Assembly: GCA_949432885.1 (NCBI GenBank)
Contig: CASQXY010000008.1
Span: 663 to 64,662 of the forward strand
Origin: an uncultured bacterium
GTDB taxonomy: Bacteria; Bacillota; Clostridia; Christensenellales; CAG-917
Reading direction: 5' to 3'
DNA: 64,000 nt
The notes under the pieces are model-generated. The model was not told the DNA's origin. It worked only from the letters and a program-made list of their open reading frames with translations, and did no database searches. Both the position numbers and the translations under genes were made by a program. Numbering within the stretch: position 1 is the first letter of the stretch; the number at the start of each line of letters is the position of its first letter. Of the stretch, positions 537 to 61,035 are shown one piece after another.

Positions 537-2840
537 TTACTTAGCGCTATCCGCTCTTTTCTTATTCTTCGGATTTAGCTTTGAGAAAAACGAGTTTACG
601 TCGATTTTACCCAAGTTGTTCAAAACTATAATCGTAATTATGCCTGCCCACAGTGCGAGGAAGATGAACAGCGTCCACCACCACGAGCCTATCAGATATA
701 TCATCATGGATACGGCGTAGGACACGATCACCCAGAACAGCAACGTCATGCGGAAGGACTTCTTGCTCGGCGACTCCGCCTTAGCGGTAGCGACAGCCGC
801 AAAGCACGGTATCGTGAGCATATTGAACGCTATAAACGCTATCAGACCGGGAATGCCAATACCCGTCGCTCCGATAAGCGCTTCTATTGAGTCTACGCCG
901 CCGAGAGCTTCGTCCGCAACGAAACCGCTGACCACACATGCCGCAAGCGTTCCAAATGTAGCTATAACGTTCTCCTTTGCGATGAGTCCAGTTATTGCCG
1001 CGACCGCGAACACCCAACCGAACGAGCCTAGCTGACTGCCGAAGCCTACGGGCGTAAAGAGCGGTTGAATAAGCTGACCTATGTTTGCGAGGATACTGTT
1101 GTTCATCTCCTCGTCGGGGAGATAGCCCCAACTCCAAGAGAAGTGACTGAAAAACCAGATAGCTATCGTTGATACGAGTATGATTGTAAACGCTTTCTTT
1201 ATAAAGTGTTTGAGCTTATCCCACAGGTGAAGCATAAGGTTTTTGAACTGCGGCGCGTGATAGGCGGGCAACTCCATGATAAACGGCGGAACTTCGCCTT
1301 TCATAGTGGTATTGCGCATAAGCAGTACGGCGCAGATTGCGACGACTATGCCGAGCAAATACATACTGTACGTAATTATATCGGCGTTGTTTATATTCGC
1401 CAAAGTCAGTATGCCGCCCGAAACCGCCGTCAGAATAGGCAATTTCGCTCCGCAGCTGAAAAACGGAATTACTCTGAGCGTAGCCGTCCTTTCGTTCTGG
1501 TCCGCCAGCGTTCTTGTATTTATCATCGCGGGAACGGAACAGCCGAAGCCCATTATCATCGGCATAAACGCTCTGCCCGACAAACCGAATTTTCTGAAAA
1601 TTCTGTCCAGTATAAACGCGACTCGCGCCATATAACCGCTGTCTTCGAGAATAGAAAAAAACAGGAACAACAACAGGATCTGAGGCAGGAAGCTCAACAC
1701 CGAAAACAGACCTCCGAGCACGCCGTCGCATATAAAACCCGTCGCCCACTCGGCAACACCGCCGCTTTCCATTGCGCCGCGTATTGCGTCTGTAAGAGAA
1801 TCCGTGCCAAGGCCGAGCAAGTTCTGCAAAAACACTCCGGGTGAATTGATTCCGCTCTCTCCGAACAGCCCTTCCGCGGCTGTGCCTTCCAGCGAAACCC
1901 ACCCTTCGGGCAGACCATAGCCTATAAACAGGAAGTTTTCGGAGAACGTAAGATGGAATACCGCAAAAAGAATAAGCAGGAAAATTGGAATACCCCAAAT
2001 CTTATGCGTAAGCACCCTGTCCGCTTTATCCGAGCGCGACAGCTTTTCCTTTTCATTACCCTTGTTCTTCACTACGACGGACGAATAATTTTTGGAGATA
2101 TACTTATATCTGCTGTCGGCGACTATCGCCTCGAAGTCGCTTCCGAACGTATCATCCTCGAAAGTCTGCTTGAACTCCTCGACCATATGAGCGGATTCGG
2201 GGTGCATTTTAACTTCGATTTCGTCAAGCTCCACAAGCTTAATCGCATGGAAAAGCGAATTGTCCACCTTCTGACCTTCGAGCGCGATTTTGCAGTCGCG
2301 TATAAGGTGCATAAGTTGGGTTCCGTCGAGTACGGTAGAGCCCGTTCTCGGCTCTTTGGATATCTCGTACGCGCGCCTCATAAGCTCGTCGAGTCCGCTT
2401 TCTTTAAGCGCGGATATTGCGACTACCGGCAGCCCCATCTTTTCTTCGAGCTTTTCGGGGTCGATTTTATCCCCGTTTTTCTCGACCGCGTCCATCATAT
2501 TAAGAGCAATGACGATAGGAACGTCGATTTCCATAATCTGAGTGGTGAGATACAGATTCCTTTCGAGATTGGTTGCGTCTATTATGTTTATGATACAATC
2601 GGGCTTTTCATCGAGTATGTAATTTCTCGAAATGACTTCCTCGGGAGTATAGGGCGACAGCGAATATATCCCCGGCAAATCGACTATGGCGATTGGCTCG
2701 CCGCACTTTTTGTACACGCCTTCCCTTTTATCTACTGTCACGCCCGGCCAGTTGCCTACGTGCGCGGTAGATCCCGTAAGGCTGTTGAACAACGTGGTTT
2801 TGCCGCAGTTGGGATTTCCCGCAAGAGCAAACTTTTTCAT
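537..2840 (-). CDS. feoB: Ferrous iron transport protein B
   Basis: 767 aa. It has an N-terminal small-GTPase domain (GNPNCGKTTLFN, DLPG) and a polytopic C-terminal gate domain. Its start overlaps the feoA stop by 4 nt. Confidence 0.97.
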   Translation of the reverse strand: MKKFALAGNPNCGKTTLFNSLTGSTAHVGNWPGVTVDKREGVYKKCGEPIAIVDLPGIYSLSPYTPEEVISRNYILDEKPDCIINIIDATNLERNLYLTTQIMEIDVPIVIALNMMDAVEKNGDKIDPEKLEEKMGLPVVAISALKESGLDELMRRAYEISKEPRTGSTVLDGTQLMHLIRDCKIALEGQKVDNSLFHAIKLVELDEIEVKMHPESAHMVEEFKQTFEDDTFGSDFEAIVADSRYKYISKNYSSVVVKNKGNEKEKLSRSDKADRVLTHKIWGIPIFLLILFAVFHLTFSENFLFIGYGLPEGWVSLEGTAAEGLFGESGINSPGVFLQNLLGLGTDSLTDAIRGAMESGGVAEWATGFICDGVLGGLFSVLSFLPQILLLFLFFSILEDSGYMARVAFILDRIFRKFGLSGRAFMPMIMGFGCSVPAMINTRTLADQNERTATLRVIPFFSCGAKLPILTAVSGGILTLANINNADIITYSMYLLGIVVAICAVLLMRNTTMKGEVPPFIMELPAYHAPQFKNLMLHLWDKLKHFIKKAFTIILVSTIAIWFFSHFSWSWGYLPDEEMNNSILANIGQLIQPLFTPVGFGSQLGSFGWVFAVAAITGLIAKENVIATFGTLAACVVSGFVADEALGGVDSIEALIGATGIGIPGLIAFIAFNMLTIPCFAAVATAKAESPSKKSFRMTLLFWVIVSYAVSMMIYLIGSWWWTLFIFLALWAGIITIIVLNNLGKIDVNSFFSKLNPKNKKRADSAK

Positions 2841-3172
2841 ACGTCAGCCTCCTCTTCCGTTTTGCGGCTTTTACTCTTAAAAAAGCCGAATCTCTTCTGC
2901 TTCTTTTCCTCTTTCGCGGAATTGAGTCTGCGCTCCTCGTCCTCGGAGCACTCACAGGTAACCGCCTGTGCCTCCGTGTTTCTGAGCGTAAGCTCGTAAC
3001 CGCGCATCGTCACCTCTATCGGGTCGCCGAGAGGCGCTTTTTTTCTGAGCGTTACGTCCGCTCCGGGAGTAACGCCCATATCGAACAGTCTTCGTCTGAT
3101 TTTTCCGTCGCCTCCGACGGCGGTTATGACGCCCGACTGTCCGATTATGAATTGGTCAAGTGTCTTTTTCAT
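2837..3172 (-). CDS. feoA: FeoA-domain protein with a charged C-terminal tail of about 35 aa
   Basis: FeoA/SH3-like core (GQSGVITAV...RRRLFDMGVTPGADVTL). It is translationally coupled to feoB. Confidence 0.85.
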   Translation of the reverse strand: MKKTLDQFIIGQSGVITAVGGDGKIRRRLFDMGVTPGADVTLRKKAPLGDPIEVTMRGYELTLRNTEAQAVTCECSEDEERRLNSAKEEKKQKRFGFFKSKSRKTEEEADV

Positions 3173-24498: not shown

Positions 24499-25551
24499 TT
24501 ATCCTTTTTGCTCGTCTGCTTTTACCTTGTTCCAAAACACGTCGAGTTCTTCGAGCGTATAATCCTTCATTTCCTTACCCGTCTCGGCAGCCAGTCTTTC
24601 CACGCCCTCGAAGCGGCGCAGGAATTTGAGGCTCGCCTCATGCAAAGCCATCTCGGTTTCCACGCCGTACAGCCGCACGGCGTTGACGGCGGCAAAGAGC
24701 AAATCCCCCGCTTCTTCCGTCCTATGCGCGCCGTCGGCGGATTTGAGCTCCTCTATTTCCTCGTTCAGCTTATCTATCGCACCGTCGGGAGTCTGCCAGT
24801 CAAAGCCCGCTTTCTTGGCAATCTTCTGAACCTTTTCGGCATACAGCAACGCGGGAAGGTTTTTAGGCACCCTGTCCATAGCGTCGGAGTTAGACTTATA
24901 CTTCTTCTCCTTCTTTTTGGCTTCCGTCCAGAATTTCAAAGCCTCCTCGGGATTGCTTGCGTGATTCTCGCCGAATATATGCGTATGCCTGTCTATCAGC
25001 TTGCGGCAGAGGTTTGTCAGCATATCGCAGTAGCCGAACTCGCCCTCATTTTGTGCAATCTCCGTATGGAAAACAGCCTGCATAAGCACGTCGCCGCATT
25101 CCTCTTTCATCATCTCGGCGTCCTTGCAATCGATAGCTTCCACCAGTTCGTATGCCTCCTCAATTAGGTTTATACGTATACTGTCGTGCGTCTGCGCCCT
25201 ATCCCATTCGCAGCCGTCGTCGGCGCGCAATCTCTTCATAATCTGTACGAAATCGGAAAAATCAAAGCGCTTACATTCCGTCACCTTACACCCGTCGATA
25301 ACAATCGTATCCGCGTCGCAACCGACGTCAAGCGCAGACACTCTCGTTTGTTTTTCACTTCCGTCTGAAAACTCGCAGACGATATCTACGTCTCCGTAAC
25401 GGTCGAGCAGTTTTTCCCGAACCGCTCGGATACAAGAATCGTTCAAGCCGTCGACGACAAGCGCGATACGCTTATCGAAAAAAACCGTGGACAAAAAATC
25501 CGCGGCTATGTAGCGCTGATAGGAACCTTTCAAAACTCCGTCAAGTTTCAT
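24499..25551 (-). CDS. mazG: MazG-family nucleoside triphosphate pyrophosphohydrolase (YabN-like, short N-terminal domain)
   Basis: Tandem MazG EEXXE helices (LIEEAYELVEAI, EEAGDLLFAAVN). Its position after the yabM-like flippase matches Bacillus yabN synteny. Confidence 0.85.
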   Translation of the reverse strand: MKLDGVLKGSYQRYIAADFLSTVFFDKRIALVVDGLNDSCIRAVREKLLDRYGDVDIVCEFSDGSEKQTRVSALDVGCDADTIVIDGCKVTECKRFDFSDFVQIMKRLRADDGCEWDRAQTHDSIRINLIEEAYELVEAIDCKDAEMMKEECGDVLMQAVFHTEIAQNEGEFGYCDMLTNLCRKLIDRHTHIFGENHASNPEEALKFWTEAKKKEKKYKSNSDAMDRVPKNLPALLYAEKVQKIAKKAGFDWQTPDGAIDKLNEEIEELKSADGAHRTEEAGDLLFAAVNAVRLYGVETEMALHEASLKFLRRFEGVERLAAETGKEMKDYTLEELDVFWNKVKADEQKG

Positions 25552-27148
25552 CGCTGTACTCCCAAAATCTAACGACCCTGTGGATAGCCCGAAGCATGCG
25601 GCGCATTGGCAGAAACTCGATTTCCTCCTTCCCGACTATGCCGAAGAGGAATGCAAGCCAAACGTAGACAGTCGCGCATACGGCAAATCCCAAAACCGTT
25701 GCAAGTATATCGTTTCTCACGGCGCTGCTTATTCCGAGCCCCGCAAGAGCCATTATAACACCGCTGAGCAGATTTAGACCAACGTTTTTTTCAAGTCGCA
25801 GACCGCATATTTTAAAATAAGCTATATTCACTCCGATAAACGCTACTGCCGCCATGGCAAACGACGCGACGGCGCCTCCCAAAATACCGATATACCGCAC
25901 GAGCACAACACTAAGCACTATCTTCGTTATTATAGCAATAAACAAACTTAACACTGCATATTTAGTCTTGTCAAGTGCCTGTAAGAGCGAAACATATATT
26001 TGCATTGCAGAAAGCAAAACTACGTTTGCGGCTACGATACGCAACAAATTTACAGATACGGAAAGCTGTGCCGCGGTCAGTGCTGGATATATAACGGGCA
26101 GGAGCCGCGGCGCAAATACCATAAAGAAAAACGCGCACGGTACGCCGATAAGATAGGACAGCTTTATGGAAAGCCTGCTTTTGAGCATAACTCCGTCTAT
26201 GTCCCTCTGCACCCTAGACACCGATACGGACGGCACGACTACAACCGCAAGCGACATGATAATCACGACGGGCATATTTACTAAGGAATTGACTGGACCC
26301 GACAGCAAACCGTACTGCGCGGTCGCCACATCCTGCGCAACCCCCGCGCCCTTTAATACGTTGACAAGAATTATACTGTCCAAAAAATTTGAAAGCGGCA
26401 TAAGCACCGCGACTATCGCAATAGGGAACGCCACCCTAAACATCGTGCGCGCGTCGTCTCGGCTGACGTGAAGTCTTTCGGCTTTCAGCTTCCTTCCGCG
26501 CACTAGATAGGTTACAAAAAGATATGAGAGCGCGCACGCCTCCGATATCGCAATTCCAAGCAGCGCTCCGTTCACCGCCGCAGTTACTCCTCTGCTTATA
26601 AAAGCGGCTGACAGACCTATTCCGACCGCGAGCTTTACAACCTGCTCGATTATATTCGACAGCGCTGTGGGCAGCATATACATTTCGCCCTGAAACCAGC
26701 CTCTGAACCCTGCAATCAGACTTACCAGGATTATCGTAGGCGCAATTATCATAAATCCCGAAGCAGTCTCGGCGTTACCCTGCCACCGCGCGATTTCGCC
26801 CGACAGCGCAAACGTCAGGATTGCCAGCACCGTGCCGAGGGTCGCAAGTACGATAATCGCAGATACAAGGTACTTTCTCGCAGGCTTGCCCTCTGCCCTC
26901 TTTTCCGCCACCATACGGGAAAGCGCAGTGGGAATGCCCGCGGTCGCAAGCACCATAAAAAGCGCGAAGACCGGAAATACAAGCTGATACATACCCATGC
27001 CTTCCGCGCCCAGAATATTGGTGAGAGGCACGCGGTAAAGCGCGCCCAGCACCTTTGCCGCCACGCTTCCGATTGCGAGCACCGCCGCACCCGACAGCAT
27101 TCGCCCTTTATTGTTTTTCATCGCCGCGCGCCTGCTCTTGTCGGACAT
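25541..27148 (-). CDS. MOP-superfamily flippase (YabM/SpoVB/MurJ-like polysaccharide biosynthesis protein)
   Basis: 535 aa, about 14 TM segments. The N-terminus KVLGALYRVPLTNILGAEGMGMYQ is typical. It lies immediately after spoVT. Confidence 0.85.
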   Translation of the reverse strand: MSDKSRRAAMKNNKGRMLSGAAVLAIGSVAAKVLGALYRVPLTNILGAEGMGMYQLVFPVFALFMVLATAGIPTALSRMVAEKRAEGKPARKYLVSAIIVLATLGTVLAILTFALSGEIARWQGNAETASGFMIIAPTIILVSLIAGFRGWFQGEMYMLPTALSNIIEQVVKLAVGIGLSAAFISRGVTAAVNGALLGIAISEACALSYLFVTYLVRGRKLKAERLHVSRDDARTMFRVAFPIAIVAVLMPLSNFLDSIILVNVLKGAGVAQDVATAQYGLLSGPVNSLVNMPVVIIMSLAVVVVPSVSVSRVQRDIDGVMLKSRLSIKLSYLIGVPCAFFFMVFAPRLLPVIYPALTAAQLSVSVNLLRIVAANVVLLSAMQIYVSLLQALDKTKYAVLSLFIAIITKIVLSVVLVRYIGILGGAVASFAMAAVAFIGVNIAYFKICGLRLEKNVGLNLLSGVIMALAGLGISSAVRNDILATVLGFAVCATVYVWLAFLFGIVGKEEIEFLPMRRMLRAIHRVVRFWEYSDET

Positions 27149-27149
27149 A

Positions 27150-27677
27150 TCACATCAAAGCCGCGGATATAAGCTCCACGCAGAAATTGAGATACGCTCG
27201 CGCAACGTCGGTCGGCGCGCCGTCAAGCAAGAGCGCAGCTCCGCCTATAAGGTCTCCGCCCACGATAACAGGTTCGAGCACACAATGCGAGCATCCCGCG
27301 TCCCTGTCCGCAAAAATGCCCTTTACGTCGTTTCCGCTGAGCTCCTCGCACTTTCTCGACCGTACTCTGTTCATAAACTCTTCGCTGAGAGGCGCGGATT
27401 GGAAATGCTTTTTGTTCTTACCCTCCGCAACGGTGACTTCGGTCGTATTTACGAAAAGAACGTTTGAATCCGTAGCCTTTGCAAGCAGTTTGGCGGCGGA
27501 GCGTATGATAGGCAATACGCTCTCGAAGCTGCTGTATTTGCGCAGCGTAAGTGCGTCGCCGCTAGACAGTATTTCCATTTCGTCGCCCTCTTTTAGGTGC
27601 ATTGTGCGGCGCATTTCTTTGGGGATTACAATACGTCCCAATTCATCGATTCTTCTGACAATTCCTGCTGTGGTCAT
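27150..27677 (-). CDS. spoVT: Stage V sporulation protein T (AbrB-family regulator)
   Basis: GIVRRIDELGRIVIPKEMRRTMHLKEGD swapped-hairpin domain plus a GAF-like C-terminus. Start at ATG 27677 (RBS GGAGGAATT). Confidence 0.9.
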   Translation of the reverse strand: MTTAGIVRRIDELGRIVIPKEMRRTMHLKEGDEMEILSSGDALTLRKYSSFESVLPIIRSAAKLLAKATDSNVLFVNTTEVTVAEGKNKKHFQSAPLSEEFMNRVRSRKCEELSGNDVKGIFADRDAGCSHCVLEPVIVGGDLIGGAALLLDGAPTDVARAYLNFCVELISAALM

Positions 27678-27943
27678 AATTCCTCCGATTTGCACTTAGT
27701 ATTTTTCAAAAGATTAAGGAATATTCCATACAATCGACCACTTTTATGAATTGACATAATCCTCGGCGAATGATACTTACTTTAACGGCGCTGCTGCGCA
27801 ATGAAAAATATAAACAAGGCGTTGGGCGGCGTCCTCAGCGGCAGTTGGAATTTCGGCACTCGGGAATAAAATTCTCTGCCCGGACAAAGATTTGACAAAA
27901 CAATTCTGAATATTCAAGGTCAAGACCTTCCTTTGCTCCGGCA

Positions 27944-54957: not shown

Positions 54958-55422
54958 TCAATTTTGCATAGCGATATACAGTACGCATACAAACGCGTAT
55001 GCATAGAATACAAACGCGGGGGCGAACTCCACCGCGATTTTGATTTCCTTCAAAAGGAATCTTATAAACAGCGTGTACGCCATTGCGAGCGAAAACGTCA
55101 TAAACACCAAAGCCGCGATTAGGTTTTTCAATCTGAAAAAGCAGAATACAAACATGATATTGAACAACCCCAGCAATGCGAAAAACAGCATGGAAGGGAA
55201 AAAATGCTTGAAGTGCACAAGCCTGCTCACCGCCAGAATACAAGATATATAGCTCACCGCAACAAATACGGTAAACCAGCCTCCGCTCACCACAAACGAT
55301 GGTTTATCCAGCGCAATATACCAGTTTAAGTCTATTTTAAAGATTGCAGAGCTAATCCCTGCGACTAAAAGTACGCAGAAAAGACCGACGACTATTCCGA
55401 CCATTCGTTTCAGGTGCTCCAC
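54958..55422 (-). CDS. TspO/MBR-like five-TM membrane protein (divergent)
   Basis: 154 aa with about 5 TM segments. NWYIALDKPSF...GGWF resembles the WY..L.KP motif of TspO, but the PP..F.VW..LY part is not conserved. Confidence 0.45.
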   Translation of the reverse strand: MEHLKRMVGIVVGLFCVLLVAGISSAIFKIDLNWYIALDKPSFVVSGGWFTVFVAVSYISCILAVSRLVHFKHFFPSMLFFALLGLFNIMFVFCFFRLKNLIAALVFMTFSLAMAYTLFIRFLLKEIKIAVEFAPAFVFYAYAFVCVLYIAMQN

Positions 55423-55527
55423 GTCAAATTATATTTGCCATTTATATTTTCAATGCTTAGGAACACATTTTTTTGAAAAAGCGTAAGGTAATGTAGGAGA
55501 AATCCTAATAAATCGGAGGTACATACT

Positions 55528-55737
55528 ATGAACTTTTTTGCAAACGGTGGCAATAACGGTTGCGGTTGCGGTTGCAACTGCTGCGACATCATCCTTCTCC
55601 TGTTCATTTTGAACAGCTGTGGTTGCGGTTGCGGATGCGGAAATACCGGATGCGGCGGCATGGGCAGTTGCGATCTCGTATGGCTTATTCTCATTCTGTC
55701 CTGCTTGTGCGGTTCTAACAACTGCTGCTGCAAGTAA
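55528..55737 (+). CDS. Cys/Gly-rich small hydrophobic protein (69 aa, 16 Cys)
   Basis: MNFFANGGNNGCGCGCNCCDIILLLFILNSCGCGCGCGNTGCGGMGSCDLVWLILILSCLCGSNNCCCK. A strong RBS (GGAGGT) lies 7 nt upstream. Its own terminator lies at 55757-55782. Confidence 0.7.
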   Translation: MNFFANGGNNGCGCGCNCCDIILLLFILNSCGCGCGCGNTGCGGMGSCDLVWLILILSCLCGSNNCCCK

Positions 55738-55756
55738 TTCGAAAATTTCGTCGGAA

Positions 55757-55782
55757 AGGAACGCCGCTCGGCGTTCCTTTTT
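55757..55782 (+). terminator. Rho-independent terminator of the Cys-rich peptide gene
   Basis: AGGAACGCC-GCTC-GGCGTTCCT followed by T5. Confidence 0.8.
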
Positions 55783-55885
55783 GCTTCGGTGCGATTACAT
55801 TCCTATCTCAATCGATTGACTTTATACTTACTTTTATTTATTATTTTATTTAATCATTATTTGCAACTTTTGATGAGGTGTGACC

Positions 55886-57271
55886 ATGGCTCAGCTTACA
55901 ATGGACAAAATAGTAGCTCTTGCAAAAAACCGCGGCTTCGTGTATCCCGGCAGCGAAATATACGGCGGACTTTCCAATTCTTGGGACTACGGTCCTCTCG
56001 GAGTCGCGCTCAAAAACAATATCAAACAGGCTTGGTGGAAGAAATTCGTTGTGGAAAATCCTCACAACGTCGGCATCGACAGTGCGATACTCATGAACCC
56101 GACCACGTGGCAGGCATCGGGACATATCGGCGGTTTTTCTGACCCGCTTATGGACTGCAAGAGCTGCAAATCCCGTCACCGCGCGGACAATCTCATCGAG
56201 GACTATATGGCAAAGCACGGCGCGCAGGAGAATATCGCGGGTTGGAGCAACGAGCAAATGGAGGCGTATATCGCCGAGCACAAAATTCCCTGCCCCGTCT
56301 GCGGCGCGAGCGACTTCACGGGAGTGAGGAAATTCAACCTCATGTTCAAGACCTTCATCGGCGTCACCGAGGACAGCACTTCCACAGTTTATCTGCGCCC
56401 CGAGACCGCGCAGGGCATATTTGTCAACTTCAAAAACGTACAGCGCACGTCGCGCAAAAAAATACCATTCGGAATCGGTCAGATAGGAAAGAGCTTCCGC
56501 AACGAAATCACGCCCGGCAACTTTATATTCCGCATCCGTGAATTCGAGCAAATGGAAATGGAATTTTTCTGCAAACCCGGCACTGACCTCGAATGGTTTG
56601 CATACTGGAAAAACTTCTGTCATCAGTGGCTCAAAGACCTCGGCATAAAGGAGGAGAATCTCCGTCTGCGCGACCATGACGCGGAGGAGCTCTGCTTCTA
56701 TTCCAAGGCTACGACGGACTTCGAGTTTAAATTCCCATTCGGCTGGGGCGAACTGTGGGGGGTCGCCGACCGCACCGACTACGACCTGAATCAGCATATA
56801 AAGACGAGCGGCAAGGATTTGAGCTACGTAGACCCCGTCACCAACGAGAAGTACGTGCCGTACGTGGTCGAGCCATCGCTCGGCGCGGACCGCGCGTTCC
56901 TCGCTTTCCTATGCAACGCGTATGACGAGGAGACCGTGGGAGAAGGAGACACTCGCATAGTGCTTCACTTCCATCCCGCGCTTGCTCCCGTCAAGGTGGC
57001 TATTCTGCCCCTTCAAAAACAGCTCAACGAAAAGGCGGAGGAGCTGTATATCGAGCTGTCAAAACGCTTCGCCTGCGATTTCGACGCTTCCGCTTCAATA
57101 GGCAAGCGCTATCGCAGACAGGATGAAATCGGCACGCCATACTGCGTAACGGTGGACTTCGACACCCTCGAAGACAGCGCCGTGACCGTACGCGAGCGCG
57201 ACAGCATGGCGCAGGTGCGCATCCCGATTTCCGAGCTTACGGCGTACTTCGAGGATAAATTGAGGTATTGA
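55886..57271 (+). CDS. glyQS: Glycine--tRNA ligase (dimeric GlyQS type)
   Basis: [21 protein letters not shown]-terminus and class II motifs. ATG 55886 follows GAGGTG; the ORF track opens at GTG 55880. Confidence 0.96.
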
Positions 57272-59348: not shown

Positions 59349-60728
59349 CTATTGCTGCGAGTTTTGCTCATCCATCATCTCGTCCACTTTGAGCATAATC
59401 GCGCACTCTATGCGCTTTTTGAAGAGGTCGCAGCCGTACGCGTACGTGCCGTTGATGTCCCCCGTAGAATTGTATGCGTTTGCGGCGCAGCCTCCCGAGC
59501 AGTACAGTCTGGCCCAGCATTCCTCGCACTCCTTACGCGAATAGGCGTTGCATTTTTTGAATTTGTCGCGTATATCCGTCCTAGTAACGCCCTGCCATAT
59601 ATCGCCCATCAGGTAGTCTTTATTCCCCACAAACTGATGACAGGGATACAGCTCACCAGTAGGCGTGACGGCGAGGTATTCCGTGCCGCTTCCGCAGCCC
59701 GATATGCGCTTATATATGCACGGACCGCCGTCGAGGTCAAGCATGTAGTGATAAAACGTAAAGGGCTTGCCGGCCTTCCTGCGCTCAATCATCATATCGG
59801 CAAGTTTCTCGTACTGACCGTATATAATTTCTTTATCCTCGTCGGTAAGCGCGTACTTGTCCGTAGGCGGACACACGACAGGCTCCATACTCAACTCGTC
59901 AAATCCGAGGTCGAGCATCGTGGCAATATCCTCGGTGAAGTCGGGATTGAAATGCGTAAATGTGCCTCGCATATAGTAGCTTCCGTTCTTTCTTGCGTCC
60001 ACGAGCTTTTTGAACTTAGGTACTATAACGTCGAAGCTGCCATTACCTCCCGCGGTCTTGCGGAAACGGTCATGCACCTCTTTCCTTCCGTCAAGACTGA
60101 GCACTACGTTATCCATTTCTCGGTTGCAGAAATCTATCACGTCGTCGTCGATAAGCATGCCGTTTGTGGTAAGCGTAAATCTGAAATGCTTGCCGCATTT
60201 CTCCTCAATGTCGCGCGCGTACTCGACCAGCCGCTTCACAACGTCAAAGTTCATAAGCGGTTCTCCGCCGAAAAAATCAACTTCGAGATTATGACGCGTG
60301 CCGCTGTTCTCCACAAGGAAATCGAGAGCTCGCCGCCCCACATCGTAGGACATAAGCGCGCGTTCGCCGCGGTATTTGCCCTGCGCCGCAAAGCAATACT
60401 CGCAATCGAGGTTGCAGGTATGCGCCACGTGCAGGCACAACGCCTTTATCACGGAATCGCGCTTTGCAAGTATATTCGCATTCGGTTTGAACGTATCCTC
60501 CGAAAACAGCTTGCCCCGAGCTTTGATTTCCTCAACGTCCGCAATACATTCCAGCGCCTCTTCGGCGGTTATACCGTGTTTTTCGCATACGGATTTTAAA
60601 ATCTGTTCCTTATCCTCGCGTTCGTACGCGTTGATAACGTCGTAGGCGACTTCGTCCACAACATGCACGCTGCCGCTCGCCGCGTCGAGCACGATATTGT
60701 ATCCGTTTTGTCTGAATGAATGAATCAT
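59349..60728 (-). CDS. scfB: Radical SAM/SPASM thioether-forming SCIFF peptide maturase
   Basis: CNLDCEYC radical-SAM cluster motif. The C-terminus is Cys-rich and SPASM-like (CGSGTEYLAV...C...CEECWARLYCSGGC). It lies directly downstream of the SCIFF precursor. Start at ATG 60728 (RBS GGAGAGAA). Confidence 0.9.
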   Translation of the reverse strand: MIHSFRQNGYNIVLDAASGSVHVVDEVAYDVINAYEREDKEQILKSVCEKHGITAEEALECIADVEEIKARGKLFSEDTFKPNANILAKRDSVIKALCLHVAHTCNLDCEYCFAAQGKYRGERALMSYDVGRRALDFLVENSGTRHNLEVDFFGGEPLMNFDVVKRLVEYARDIEEKCGKHFRFTLTTNGMLIDDDVIDFCNREMDNVVLSLDGRKEVHDRFRKTAGGNGSFDVIVPKFKKLVDARKNGSYYMRGTFTHFNPDFTEDIATMLDLGFDELSMEPVVCPPTDKYALTDEDKEIIYGQYEKLADMMIERRKAGKPFTFYHYMLDLDGGPCIYKRISGCGSGTEYLAVTPTGELYPCHQFVGNKDYLMGDIWQGVTRTDIRDKFKKCNAYSRKECEECWARLYCSGGCAANAYNSTGDINGTYAYGCDLFKKRIECAIMLKVDEMMDEQNSQQ

Positions 60729-60834
60729 ATGTATTCTCTCCGCCGCGGCTATGCAAACGCACAATCGCGCCGCGCTTCAATTTATTTCCGCTGATTATGA
60801 CGGCAGGTATCCGCACAATAAAGTGCGCCGTCAC

Positions 60835-60860: not shown

Positions 60861-60888
60861 ACTTTCTGTATGAAAAATACGGCAGAGC

Positions 60889-61035
60889 TTATTTTGCCGC
60901 TTTCTCGCACTTCTGATTTGCCACACCGCAGGACGTCTTGCAAGCGGATTGGCAGGAAGTTTGGCACTCGCCGCAACCGCCGTTCTTTTTGCTCTCGTTG
61001 AGATTGCGGGTTTTCAATGTAACGATTCTTTTCAT
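60889..61035 (-). CDS. scfA: Six-cysteine peptide SCIFF (48 aa RiPP precursor; below the ORF-track length cut-off)
   Basis: My translation is MKRIVTLKTRNLNESKKNGGCGECQTSCQSACKTSCGVANQKCEKAAK. The GGCGECQTSCQSACKTSC core matches the SCIFF family as I recall it. RBS AAGGAGCAA. Confidence 0.9.
   Translation of the reverse strand: MKRIVTLKTRNLNESKKNGGCGECQTSCQSACKTSCGVANQKCEKAAK

Follow-up and report, generated by a model that had tools for sequence, protein, structure and literature searches.

A cysteine- and glycine-rich mini-protein gene with a sigma-K-type promoter is a candidate spore-envelope locus of gut Clostridia

We describe here a small gene in a 64,000-nucleotide stretch of contig CASQXY010000008.1 (hereafter the window), which derives from an uncultured bacterium of the Christensenellales. 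The interval 55423-55782 of the window spans the upstream region, the coding sequence and a portion of the terminator of this gene, whose product is a 69-residue Cys/Gly-rich peptide. Comparison with related loci points to a sigma-K-type promoter in front of the gene and to membership of a large clostridial superfamily, and leads us to propose a role in the spore envelope. The elements recognized at the locus are as follows.

55461-55465, plus strand: putative -35 element GAACA (kmACA, with C at position 4), conserved in all 31 loci compared
55481-55490, plus strand: putative -10 element GCGTAAGGTA (compare nCATAnnnTA), 15 nucleotides 3' of the -35 element, near-invariant in the 31 loci
55481-55499, plus strand: conserved 19-mer GCGTAAGGTAATGTAGGAG, taking in the -10 box and, with TGTA, the probable start-site region; present in all orthologues
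55494-55507, plus strand: small hairpin TAGGA-GAAA-TCCTA, at the likely 5' end of the mRNA (RNAfold, RNAalifold)
55515-55519, plus strand: ribosome-binding site GGAGG, 8 nucleotides 5' of the ATG
55528-55737, plus strand: coding sequence of the 69-residue Cys/Gly-rich peptide with two hydrophobic cores (translation, purifying selection, profile comparison)
55557-55575, plus strand: hexamer array, CGGTTG x 3.2, coding for the first Cys-Gly run (Tandem Repeats Finder, 100% match)
55621-55640, plus strand: hexamer array, GGTTGC x 3.3, coding for the second Cys-Gly run (Tandem Repeats Finder, 92% match)
55752-55789, plus strand: intrinsic terminator with a 14-bp G+C-rich stem and a T-run, -21.4 (centroid) to -23.6 kcal/mol, z = -3.0

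A preliminary description of this DNA had reported an open reading frame of 69 codons with 16 cysteines and two similar halves, and the translation of 55528-55737 matches it exactly. Cysteine makes up 23% of the residues, and is accompanied by 14 Gly, 9 Asn, 9 Leu and 5 Ile; charge is limited to D20, D49 and the C-terminal K69. Each half of the peptide runs from a Cys/Gly stretch through an aspartate into an 8-residue, purely apolar core, IILLLFIL (21-28) in the first half and LVWLILIL (50-57) in the second, and closes with Ser/Asn-Cys. The Kyte-Doolittle profile, averaged over 19 residues, accordingly peaks twice, at 1.84 and 1.83, the flanking cysteines contributing to both maxima.

The gene appears to be a self-contained transcription unit. 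The ribosome-binding site region is retained among orthologues as the motif GGAGGTACATA..ATG, and the glyQS genes that follow downstream have a sigma-70-like site of their own at 55816-55844, which was the sole one found by a sigma-70 scan, with none for the peptide gene. Given the terminator and this separate glyQS site, a monocistronic transcript is the natural reading, in agreement with the preliminary description, which also noted the strong ribosome-binding site and the terminator. At the RNA level the orthologues have in common nothing beyond a short GGA/UCC stem of 3-5 bp, with no larger conserved structure found by RNAfold or RNAalifold, and a scan of 55300-56000 against Rfam gave only sub-threshold chance matches and no T-box. 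Since only this tiny hairpin is shared and Rfam provides no match, we read the conserved upstream block as an element that acts at the DNA level.

Orthologues were sought in one genome per species and were found in 30 further species, making 31 with the window. All 30 are gut metagenome-assembled genomes (MAGs) labelled Clostridia, Christensenella sp., CAG:475 and similar; the identical protein is in addition encoded on 21 further contigs. The reading frame is intact in 31 of 31 cases and is 59-69 residues long, with every length difference in-frame and confined to the Cys-Gly linkers, where whole CG units are gained or lost so that the number of cysteines ranges from 9 to 16. The core region behaves quite differently from the linkers: the motif SCD[IL]VWLIL[IVL]LSC is essentially invariant, and the cysteines flanking the hydrophobic cores (C19, C48 and C59) nearly so. 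Of 23 invariant residues 21 are codon-degenerate, and every one of these 21 is encoded by more than one synonymous codon across the species. Likewise, the gene differs from that of its nearest relative (L001) at 13 nucleotides, every change being synonymous, at a locus where the neighboring proteins differ by 4-12%. Strong purifying selection on the peptide is shown by this pattern of substitution.

The GGTTGC hexamer repeats noted in the preliminary description are borne out by the two arrays, and its view of them as prone to slippage stands insofar as length variants exist: besides those among the orthologues, a related strain represented in metatranscriptome X25 has a 6-nucleotide in-frame deletion within the second array. 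The disruption of the frame by slippage that it had considered, along with poor conservation, is the opposite of what is seen. Together, the X25 deletion and the in-frame orthologue lengths indicate that slippage does occur and that the variants which survive are in-frame only. Four DNA metagenomes were searched for variation in repeat length and showed no polymorphism, the one irregularity being a contig break at the repeat. This break, in DNA run X17, falls exactly at the second array (55619-55633), through which the other runs assemble, and is a possible sign that the repeat differs in length within that sample.

These comparisons also bear on the idea that the reading frame is not a gene, and arises by chance over a GC-rich hexamer repeat or forms part of a leader element of glyQS. 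The sequence is of low complexity and precedes glyQS, genes that are commonly equipped with a T-box leader. The synonymous substitution pattern, though, implies selection on the protein, the reading frame stays beside its divergent neighbor (a TspO-family gene, described below) where glyS is elsewhere, and the promoter-like site of glyQS lies beyond the terminator. As no T-box was detected in the Rfam scan, the identification of the reading frame as a glyQS leader is ruled out. We therefore attach almost no credence to a non-coding explanation, and regard the reading frame, on the evidence of its codon-level conservation, as almost certainly a real gene.

We aligned the 125 nucleotides upstream of the 31 orthologues and found two blocks conserved far above their surroundings, G[T/G][A/C]ACACA and, 15 nucleotides further on, GCGTAAGGTAATGTAGGAG. 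The arrangement resembles that of sigma-K promoters, which in Bacillus subtilis combine a 5-nucleotide -35 element with a 10-nucleotide -10 element across a gap of 14-16 nucleotides; the -10 element is common to sigma-E promoters, and position 4 of the -35 element is C for sigma-K and T for sigma-E (PMC517825). In Clostridioides difficile the corresponding distinction is "AC" in the -35 element for sigma-K and "ATA" for sigma-E (PMC3789822). The consensus we used (kmACA, a gap of 14-16, CATAnnnTA) is derived from these two species. The -35 element reads GAACA, TAACA or TCACA in all 31 loci, varying only between G and T at position 1 and between A and C at position 2, and this variation coincides exactly with the degeneracy of the consensus. 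The -10 box, CGTAAGGTA, matches 5 of the 6 specified positions; at the sixth a G replaces the conserved A, giving CGTA and not CATA in all 31 loci, a substitution also present in the Lachnospiraceae homologue L099. In the window the complete element GAACA-N15-GCGTAAGGTA at 55461-55490 ends 37 nucleotides before the ATG. A relaxed two-block pattern has a single match on both strands of the 64-kb window, namely this promoter, and the 19-mer, in which point changes occur only in L021 and L022, is unique in the window even when up to 3 mismatches are allowed.

The window family can be connected to a much larger set of proteins. Scans of Pfam and NCBIfam at E-values up to 10 assigned no family to the peptide, to 27 members of its family or to 9 members from Lachnospiraceae, and a profile search of the PDB found no match for the family. 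A profile search run exhaustively over 1.8 billion representative proteins recovered only nine at E < 1e-3, the distant members among them at E = 6e-5 to 5e-4. Some of these nine belong to a second group, and a profile built from that group reaches at least 548 proteins and, in a genome collection searched with the narrower Lachnospiraceae alignment A4, at least 170 species. The superfamily is found mostly in Lachnospiraceae (Roseburia, Agathobacter, Blautia, Lachnospira, Lacrimispora and others), with some contigs labelled Oscillospiraceae. Direct comparison of the window-family alignment (A2) with A4 in hhalign gives a probability of 97.3% and E = 2.5e-11 over 52 columns, values that the biased composition may inflate. 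Some loci of the Clostridia type (L002, L006, L019, L020, L096, L105) and two of the proteins (P0001, P0102) are on contigs labelled Bacteroides sp., Phascolarctobacterium, Anaeroplasmataceae, Senegalimassilia, Thermoguttaceae or Muribaculaceae, labels that are probably due to misbinned or contaminated source assemblies.

The two groups share a common plan, exemplified by the Lachnospiraceae member MSDLAATNCGC...SCNIIWIILLLSCFCGNG...CCWIIILLLLFC...GCGC with its two-module layout. In both, a Cys/Gly run leads into a short, Trp-containing, ultra-hydrophobic core that ends in Ser/Asn-Cys and is followed by a Cys/Gly tail, the whole protein is 60-90 residues in size, and a sigma-K-type promoter is equally spaced from the start codon. 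The window peptide has the features by which members can be recognized, that is two Cys-flanked ultra-hydrophobic cores with Cys/Gly/Asn linkers in a protein of 60-90 residues. There are also consistent differences. The N-terminus is MNFF.NG in the window family and MSDL(T/S)A(T/S)NCGC in the Lachnospiraceae group; the window family alone has an Asp ahead of each hydrophobic core and a C(C)K C-terminus; its -10 box is CGTAAGGTA as against CATAnnnTA; and its partner gene is TspO, whereas the Lachnospiraceae group is accompanied by a convergent gene of ~50 codons and by genes for proteins of 110-149 and 92 residues. Because these Lachnospiraceae partner genes are absent and the N-terminus is of the MNFF type, the window gene is placed in a separate subfamily. 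On profile similarity and shared layout, it very probably belongs to the large clostridial Cys/Gly-rich superfamily as a divergent branch.

Homologues in unrelated gene contexts have what would pass for textbook sigma-K sites, such as TAACA-N14-GCATATGATA, AAACA-N15-ACATACTATA, TCACA-N14-TCATATGTTA and GAACC-N14-GCATAATATA, at the same distance from the start codon. Counts of the pattern and its controls were as follows.

Lachnospiraceae homologues, strict sigma-K pattern ending 26-35 nucleotides before the ATG: 41 of 78
Lachnospiraceae homologues, relaxed pattern (CATA or CGTA; TA or TG): 69 of 78
Lachnospiraceae homologues, sigma-E version (T at position 4 of the -35 element): 0 of 78
Shuffled upstream regions, strict pattern: mean 0.4 of 78
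Other open reading frames of the Lachnospiraceae loci, sigma-K pattern: 2 of 286
Other open reading frames of the Christensenellales-like loci, sigma-K pattern: 0 of 440

At the level of promoter sequence, conservation of a sigma-K-type architecture is thus shown across the superfamily, and this supports the spore component that the preliminary description had listed among several possible roles. Two further motifs accompany the promoters. TGTAAA is located 12-17 nucleotides after the -10 box in L048-L127, with TGTAGG in its place in the window family (55492-55495 in the window), and a subset of the Lachnospiraceae promoters has a common GAAACAnTGACAGGC overlapping the -35 element. These motifs may mark the start site, a regulator site (for example a candidate SpoIIID site), or both.

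Many bacterial members of the superfamily (P0022, P0035, P0053 and others) are labelled "chorion class high-cysteine HCB protein 13" in NCBI/nr. The silkmoth chorion high-cysteine (Hc-B) proteins from which such a name derives are eukaryotic, secreted eggshell components with a conserved central chorion domain; they contain Cys-Gly repeats and form a protective shell that is hardened via disulfide bonds. What the bacterial peptide has in common with them is the Cys-Gly repeat composition and the proposed logic of a disulfide-linked shell. No chorion Pfam family matched any of the 27 window-family members scanned, and a literature search for the name "HCB protein 13" led only to a silkworm (Bombyx) pharmacology paper. 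As the resemblance is compositional only, the name is a mis-transfer, and the insect-derived label on bacterial proteins is evidently an annotation error. The preliminary description was correct that this is a real gene and that no function has been described for such peptides, our own literature search having found no functional study of the bacterial family; what it overlooked is the large database family concealed under the spurious "chorion" name, besides the constant pairing with TspO in the clade of the window and the restriction of slippage to in-frame length variants. Profile searches of the kind it had proposed uncovered the superfamily, and no maturase is linked to any of the loci.

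The genes around the peptide gene are relevant to several other explanations of its function. Its immediate neighbors in the window are a divergent TspO/MBR gene and glyQS, and a SCIFF precursor-maturase pair is found 3.6-5.2 kb downstream.

54958-55422, minus strand: TspO/MBR-family membrane protein, divergent neighbor (PF03073, E = 1.6e-7; precomputed Pfam matches)
59349-60764, minus strand: SCIFF radical-SAM maturase, adjoining the SCIFF precursor
60888-61034, minus strand: SCIFF precursor (PF13165)

The TspO assignment has a score of 31.6 bits against a cut-off of 24, over residues 11-144, and agrees with precomputed matches in L031-L034. Its start is ambiguous, being either a GTG at 55422 (154 residues) or an ATG at 55404 (148 residues, the call in the public record). 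The peptide and TspO genes are divergent and about 105-120 bp apart in 30 of 30 orthologous loci. They remain together where glyS is on the other side (L005, L007) and where coaX/hom has moved away (L012, L016, L017, L023), and the pairing persists as TspO identity declines to 49-68%. Two more conserved blocks are found in the intergenic region, AAAnTATATTT (55426-55436) and TTCAATGC (55449-55456), which on the minus strand resemble a -10 TATAAT and a -35 TTGAAA only 14 nucleotides apart. We searched for a TspO link at the loci of the distant homologues and found none, the pairing being confined to the clade of the window.

The constancy of this arrangement raises the alternative that the peptide is a small membrane protein working with TspO/MBR, for example as its thiol-rich partner in handling tetrapyrrole, haem or redox chemistry, and has no part in sporulation. 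The divergent pairing in 30 of 30 species, its survival of gene relocation and of the fall in TspO identity, and the hydrophobic nature of both products would fit such a partnership. However, the pairing is restricted to one clade, homologues elsewhere occur in three other contexts without TspO, and the promoter is of the sporulation type and not of the sigma-A type. Retained synteny within one family-level clade is moreover weak evidence, because very short intergenic gaps are rarely broken. We consider this alternative unlikely. On gene order, TspO is a partner conserved within this clade, with a putative functional link to the peptide, and the TspO-paired MNFF subfamily is a distinct branch of the superfamily.

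A second alternative is that the peptide is the precursor of a ribosomally synthesized and post-translationally modified peptide (RiPP), with thioether, sactionine or ranthipeptide chemistry, or is a bacteriocin. Its small size and abundant cysteines, and the presence of a radical-SAM/SCIFF system in the vicinity, make this an obvious possibility to weigh, and SCIFF ranthipeptide precursors are themselves small Cys-rich peptides of Clostridia. Nevertheless, the SCIFF maturase already adjoins a precursor of its own that matches PF13165, whereas our peptide has neither such a match nor an adjacent maturase. This bears out the earlier statement that the peptide gene adjoins no maturase and that SCIFF has its own precursor. 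No maturase or other modifying enzyme, transporter or immunity gene is linked to the peptide gene in any of the 30 orthologous loci or at the loci of distant homologues, so that the RiPP option raised in the preliminary description lacks a modifying enzyme in three conserved gene contexts. The peptide has no leader or cleavage motif, and its layout of variable Cys-rich parts around invariant cores is the reverse of a conserved leader with a defined core. A RiPP or bacteriocin identity is highly improbable. In a separate observation on the SCIFF genes, several variant contigs of the RNA-derived run X24 cover the precursor region, at a contig depth of up to ~198, and this coverage points to very abundant SCIFF transcripts in the community sampled.

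In Lachnospiraceae the peptide gene is followed by a convergent gene of ~50 codons and then by co-oriented genes for proteins of 110-149 and 92 residues. Examples of the set, and one further neighbor, are as follows.

L044, 4311-5212; L047, 4361-5227; L035, 6592-7255; L038, 1195-1964: Lachnospiraceae partner set (the ~50-residue product begins MGRLIIDGNSVYEIDEEC...)
L035, 4215-5933, plus strand: Csp-type subtilisin-like germination protease (CspBA E ~1e-88, CspC E ~1e-82)

Of 80 Lachnospiraceae loci, 58-63 have the two co-oriented genes and 44 the ~50-codon gene. The latter often has a sigma-K-type promoter of its own (for example in L049, L060, L061, L076, L118 and L124). None of the partner genes belongs to a Pfam or NCBIfam family, and a search for them in the window and the 30 orthologous loci found none. 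In one lineage (L035) the Csp-type germination protease gene ends 67 bp upstream of the homologous peptide gene. The iron-transport genes feoA/feoB are present both in the window (537-3172, minus strand) and in L035 (411-3559), there a few kb from the distant homologue; their occurrence in both loci is probably a coincidence.

The composition of the peptide allows for a third alternative, a peptide tethered to the membrane that, in the manner of a metallothionein, would use its CxCxC and CC(C) motifs to bind Zn, Cu, Cd or Fe, or an iron-sulfur cluster, a function that would be compatible with a role in the spore. A cysteine content of 23% in C-x-C and CC motifs is typical of metallothioneins, and the core-flanking cysteines are nearly invariant. 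The number and spacing of the linker cysteines vary freely among orthologues, however, and a defined metal cluster is for that reason disfavored. Nor did the Pfam and NCBIfam scans return a metallothionein or iron-sulfur family, and no metal-related gene is consistently linked. We judge dedicated metal binding to be distinctly unlikely.

The one exception to the negative family scans, a TisB_toxin match in 1 of the 27 family members, might suggest that these short, hydrophobic proteins are type I toxins or otherwise damage membranes. This match (E = 0.29) lacks significance. Neither an antisense RNA nor a repeat structure was seen, and Rfam was negative; the gene is single-copy at a fixed chromosomal position across 31 species; the composition is unlike that of known type I toxins; and the strong ribosome-binding site comes with no obvious translational block. 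The chance of a toxin function is very slim.

Several known sporulation proteins offer closer functional parallels. Proteins of the YjcZ family of Bacilli (TIGR01732 / Tiny_TM_bacill) are very small, and in them a Gly-rich segment with some cysteine precedes a strongly hydrophobic stretch, a combination that recalls the present peptide, although they have one hydrophobic segment where it has two and contain far fewer cysteines. In B. subtilis yjcZ, which encodes a tiny hydrophobic protein, is in the sigma-K regulon (PMC517825). The hidden Markov model of the YjcZ family did not match the peptide, the 27 family members or the 9 Lachnospiraceae members (hmmscan, E up to 10). CotY, CotZ and ExsY of Bacilli and CdeC and CdeM of C. 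difficile are late mother-cell, Cys-rich proteins thought to form disulfide-cross-linked outer layers of the spore. They are much larger than the peptide, are not dominated by Cys-Gly repeats and are without paired ultra-hydrophobic cores, and no sequence similarity to them emerged in the Pfam, NCBIfam and PDB profile searches. Tiny Cys-rich and/or hydrophobic sporulation proteins, whether of the YjcZ type or from the coat and exosporium, are thus already known; the present family is one with neither a characterized member nor a family model.

The window also contains genes related to sporulation genes, and in B. subtilis order.

24499-25551, minus strand: yabN/mazG
25541-27148, minus strand: spoVB/yabM-like gene, below the NCBIfam equivalog cut-off
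27150-27695, minus strand: spoVT-like gene, below the NCBIfam equivalog cut-off

The limited evidence for transcription of the peptide gene comes from metatranscriptome X25, in which a 191-nucleotide contig (94% match) covers 55486-55681 and is the sole good match within 20 kb, suggesting that the peptide mRNA is relatively abundant. Logan contigs in RNA data touch the peptide gene in X24 and X25 only. Searching 4 kb against four raw metatranscriptomes yielded no reads of the organism of the window; the RNA runs filed under the same host label are mostly single-cell host libraries. Standard proteomics would miss the peptide because it contains no internal tryptic sites.

Taking these lines of evidence together, our favored interpretation is that the gene encodes a late, mother-cell-expressed structural mini-protein of the spore envelope, to which we assign a probability of about 0.5. 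A number of observations weigh against it. The -10 box of the window family has CGTA in place of CATA at a strongly conserved position, and the 5' end of the X25 contig (55486) falls inside this proposed box, a position incompatible with the promoter as proposed, unless the contig stems from read-through or from DNA left in the RNA sample. The spoVT-like and spoVB-like genes of the window both score under their equivalog cut-offs, and the relatives of the window are MAGs labelled Christensenella or Clostridia whose capacity for sporulation is unproven. According to the predictions of one machine-learning tool, most Christensenellales MAGs do not sporulate, the family CAG-74 being among the exceptions (PMC12536801). 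Similarity detected amid such biased composition may also overstate the homology between the two groups. Finally, the 8-residue apolar cores fall short of the length of a classical transmembrane helix; an AlphaFold2 model (from an 8-sequence alignment) has helices at 18-30 and 47-65 that cover both cores, yet its mean confidence (pLDDT, predicted local distance difference test) of 46.6 makes it unreliable.

Under the spore-envelope interpretation, RNA polymerase carrying sigma-K, or a sigma-E/K-like factor, would transcribe a short monocistronic mRNA late in sporulation, and the mother cell would make the peptide, which has no signal peptide, in quantity. The two hydrophobic cores would lead it to insert into or associate with the outer forespore membrane, to self-associate in the nascent coat, or both. 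The variable Cys/Gly linkers would supply a high density of thiols that, on leaving the reducing mother cell, could be cross-linked by disulfides and possibly bridged by metal, the outcome being an insoluble, hydrophobic outer layer of the spore. In function the peptide would then be an analogue of the sigma-K-controlled YjcZ-type proteins and of the Cys-rich proteins found in the coat and exosporium of Bacilli and C. difficile, as well as a bacterial counterpart to the high-cysteine eggshell proteins whose name it wrongly bears. The parts of this scheme differ in strength. Transcription of the window gene specifically in sporulation seems somewhat probable to us from its upstream sequence. 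A specific coat or cross-linking role, for which we infer both the localization and the cross-links, is a tentative proposal that we rate at rather less than an even chance. That the family forms a major building block of the outer spore envelope in gut Clostridia (Lachnospiraceae, Oscillospiraceae and Christensenellales-like bacteria), driven by sigma-K, self-assembling and hardened by disulfides on meeting oxygen, is doubtful at present. Were this to be true, it would constitute a convergence with the high-cysteine proteins of the insect eggshell, and hexamer slippage, by varying the length of the Cys-Gly linkers, would adjust how densely the proteins are cross-linked from one lineage to another.

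Many of the dominant anaerobes of the gut pass from host to host as spores, yet to our knowledge, C. difficile apart, almost nothing has been learned of the spore surface in commensal Clostridia. With members in at least 170 species, the family described here offers a concrete candidate for an envelope component that is conserved and made late in sporulation. The label "chorion class high-cysteine HCB protein 13" on its bacterial members should be replaced, and its promoter motif could be used to predict mother-cell regulons in uncultured Clostridia. For the mouse-gut, Christensenellales-like lineage of the window, the conserved promoter argues that a functional sigma-E/K-type factor, and possibly sporulation itself, has been kept.

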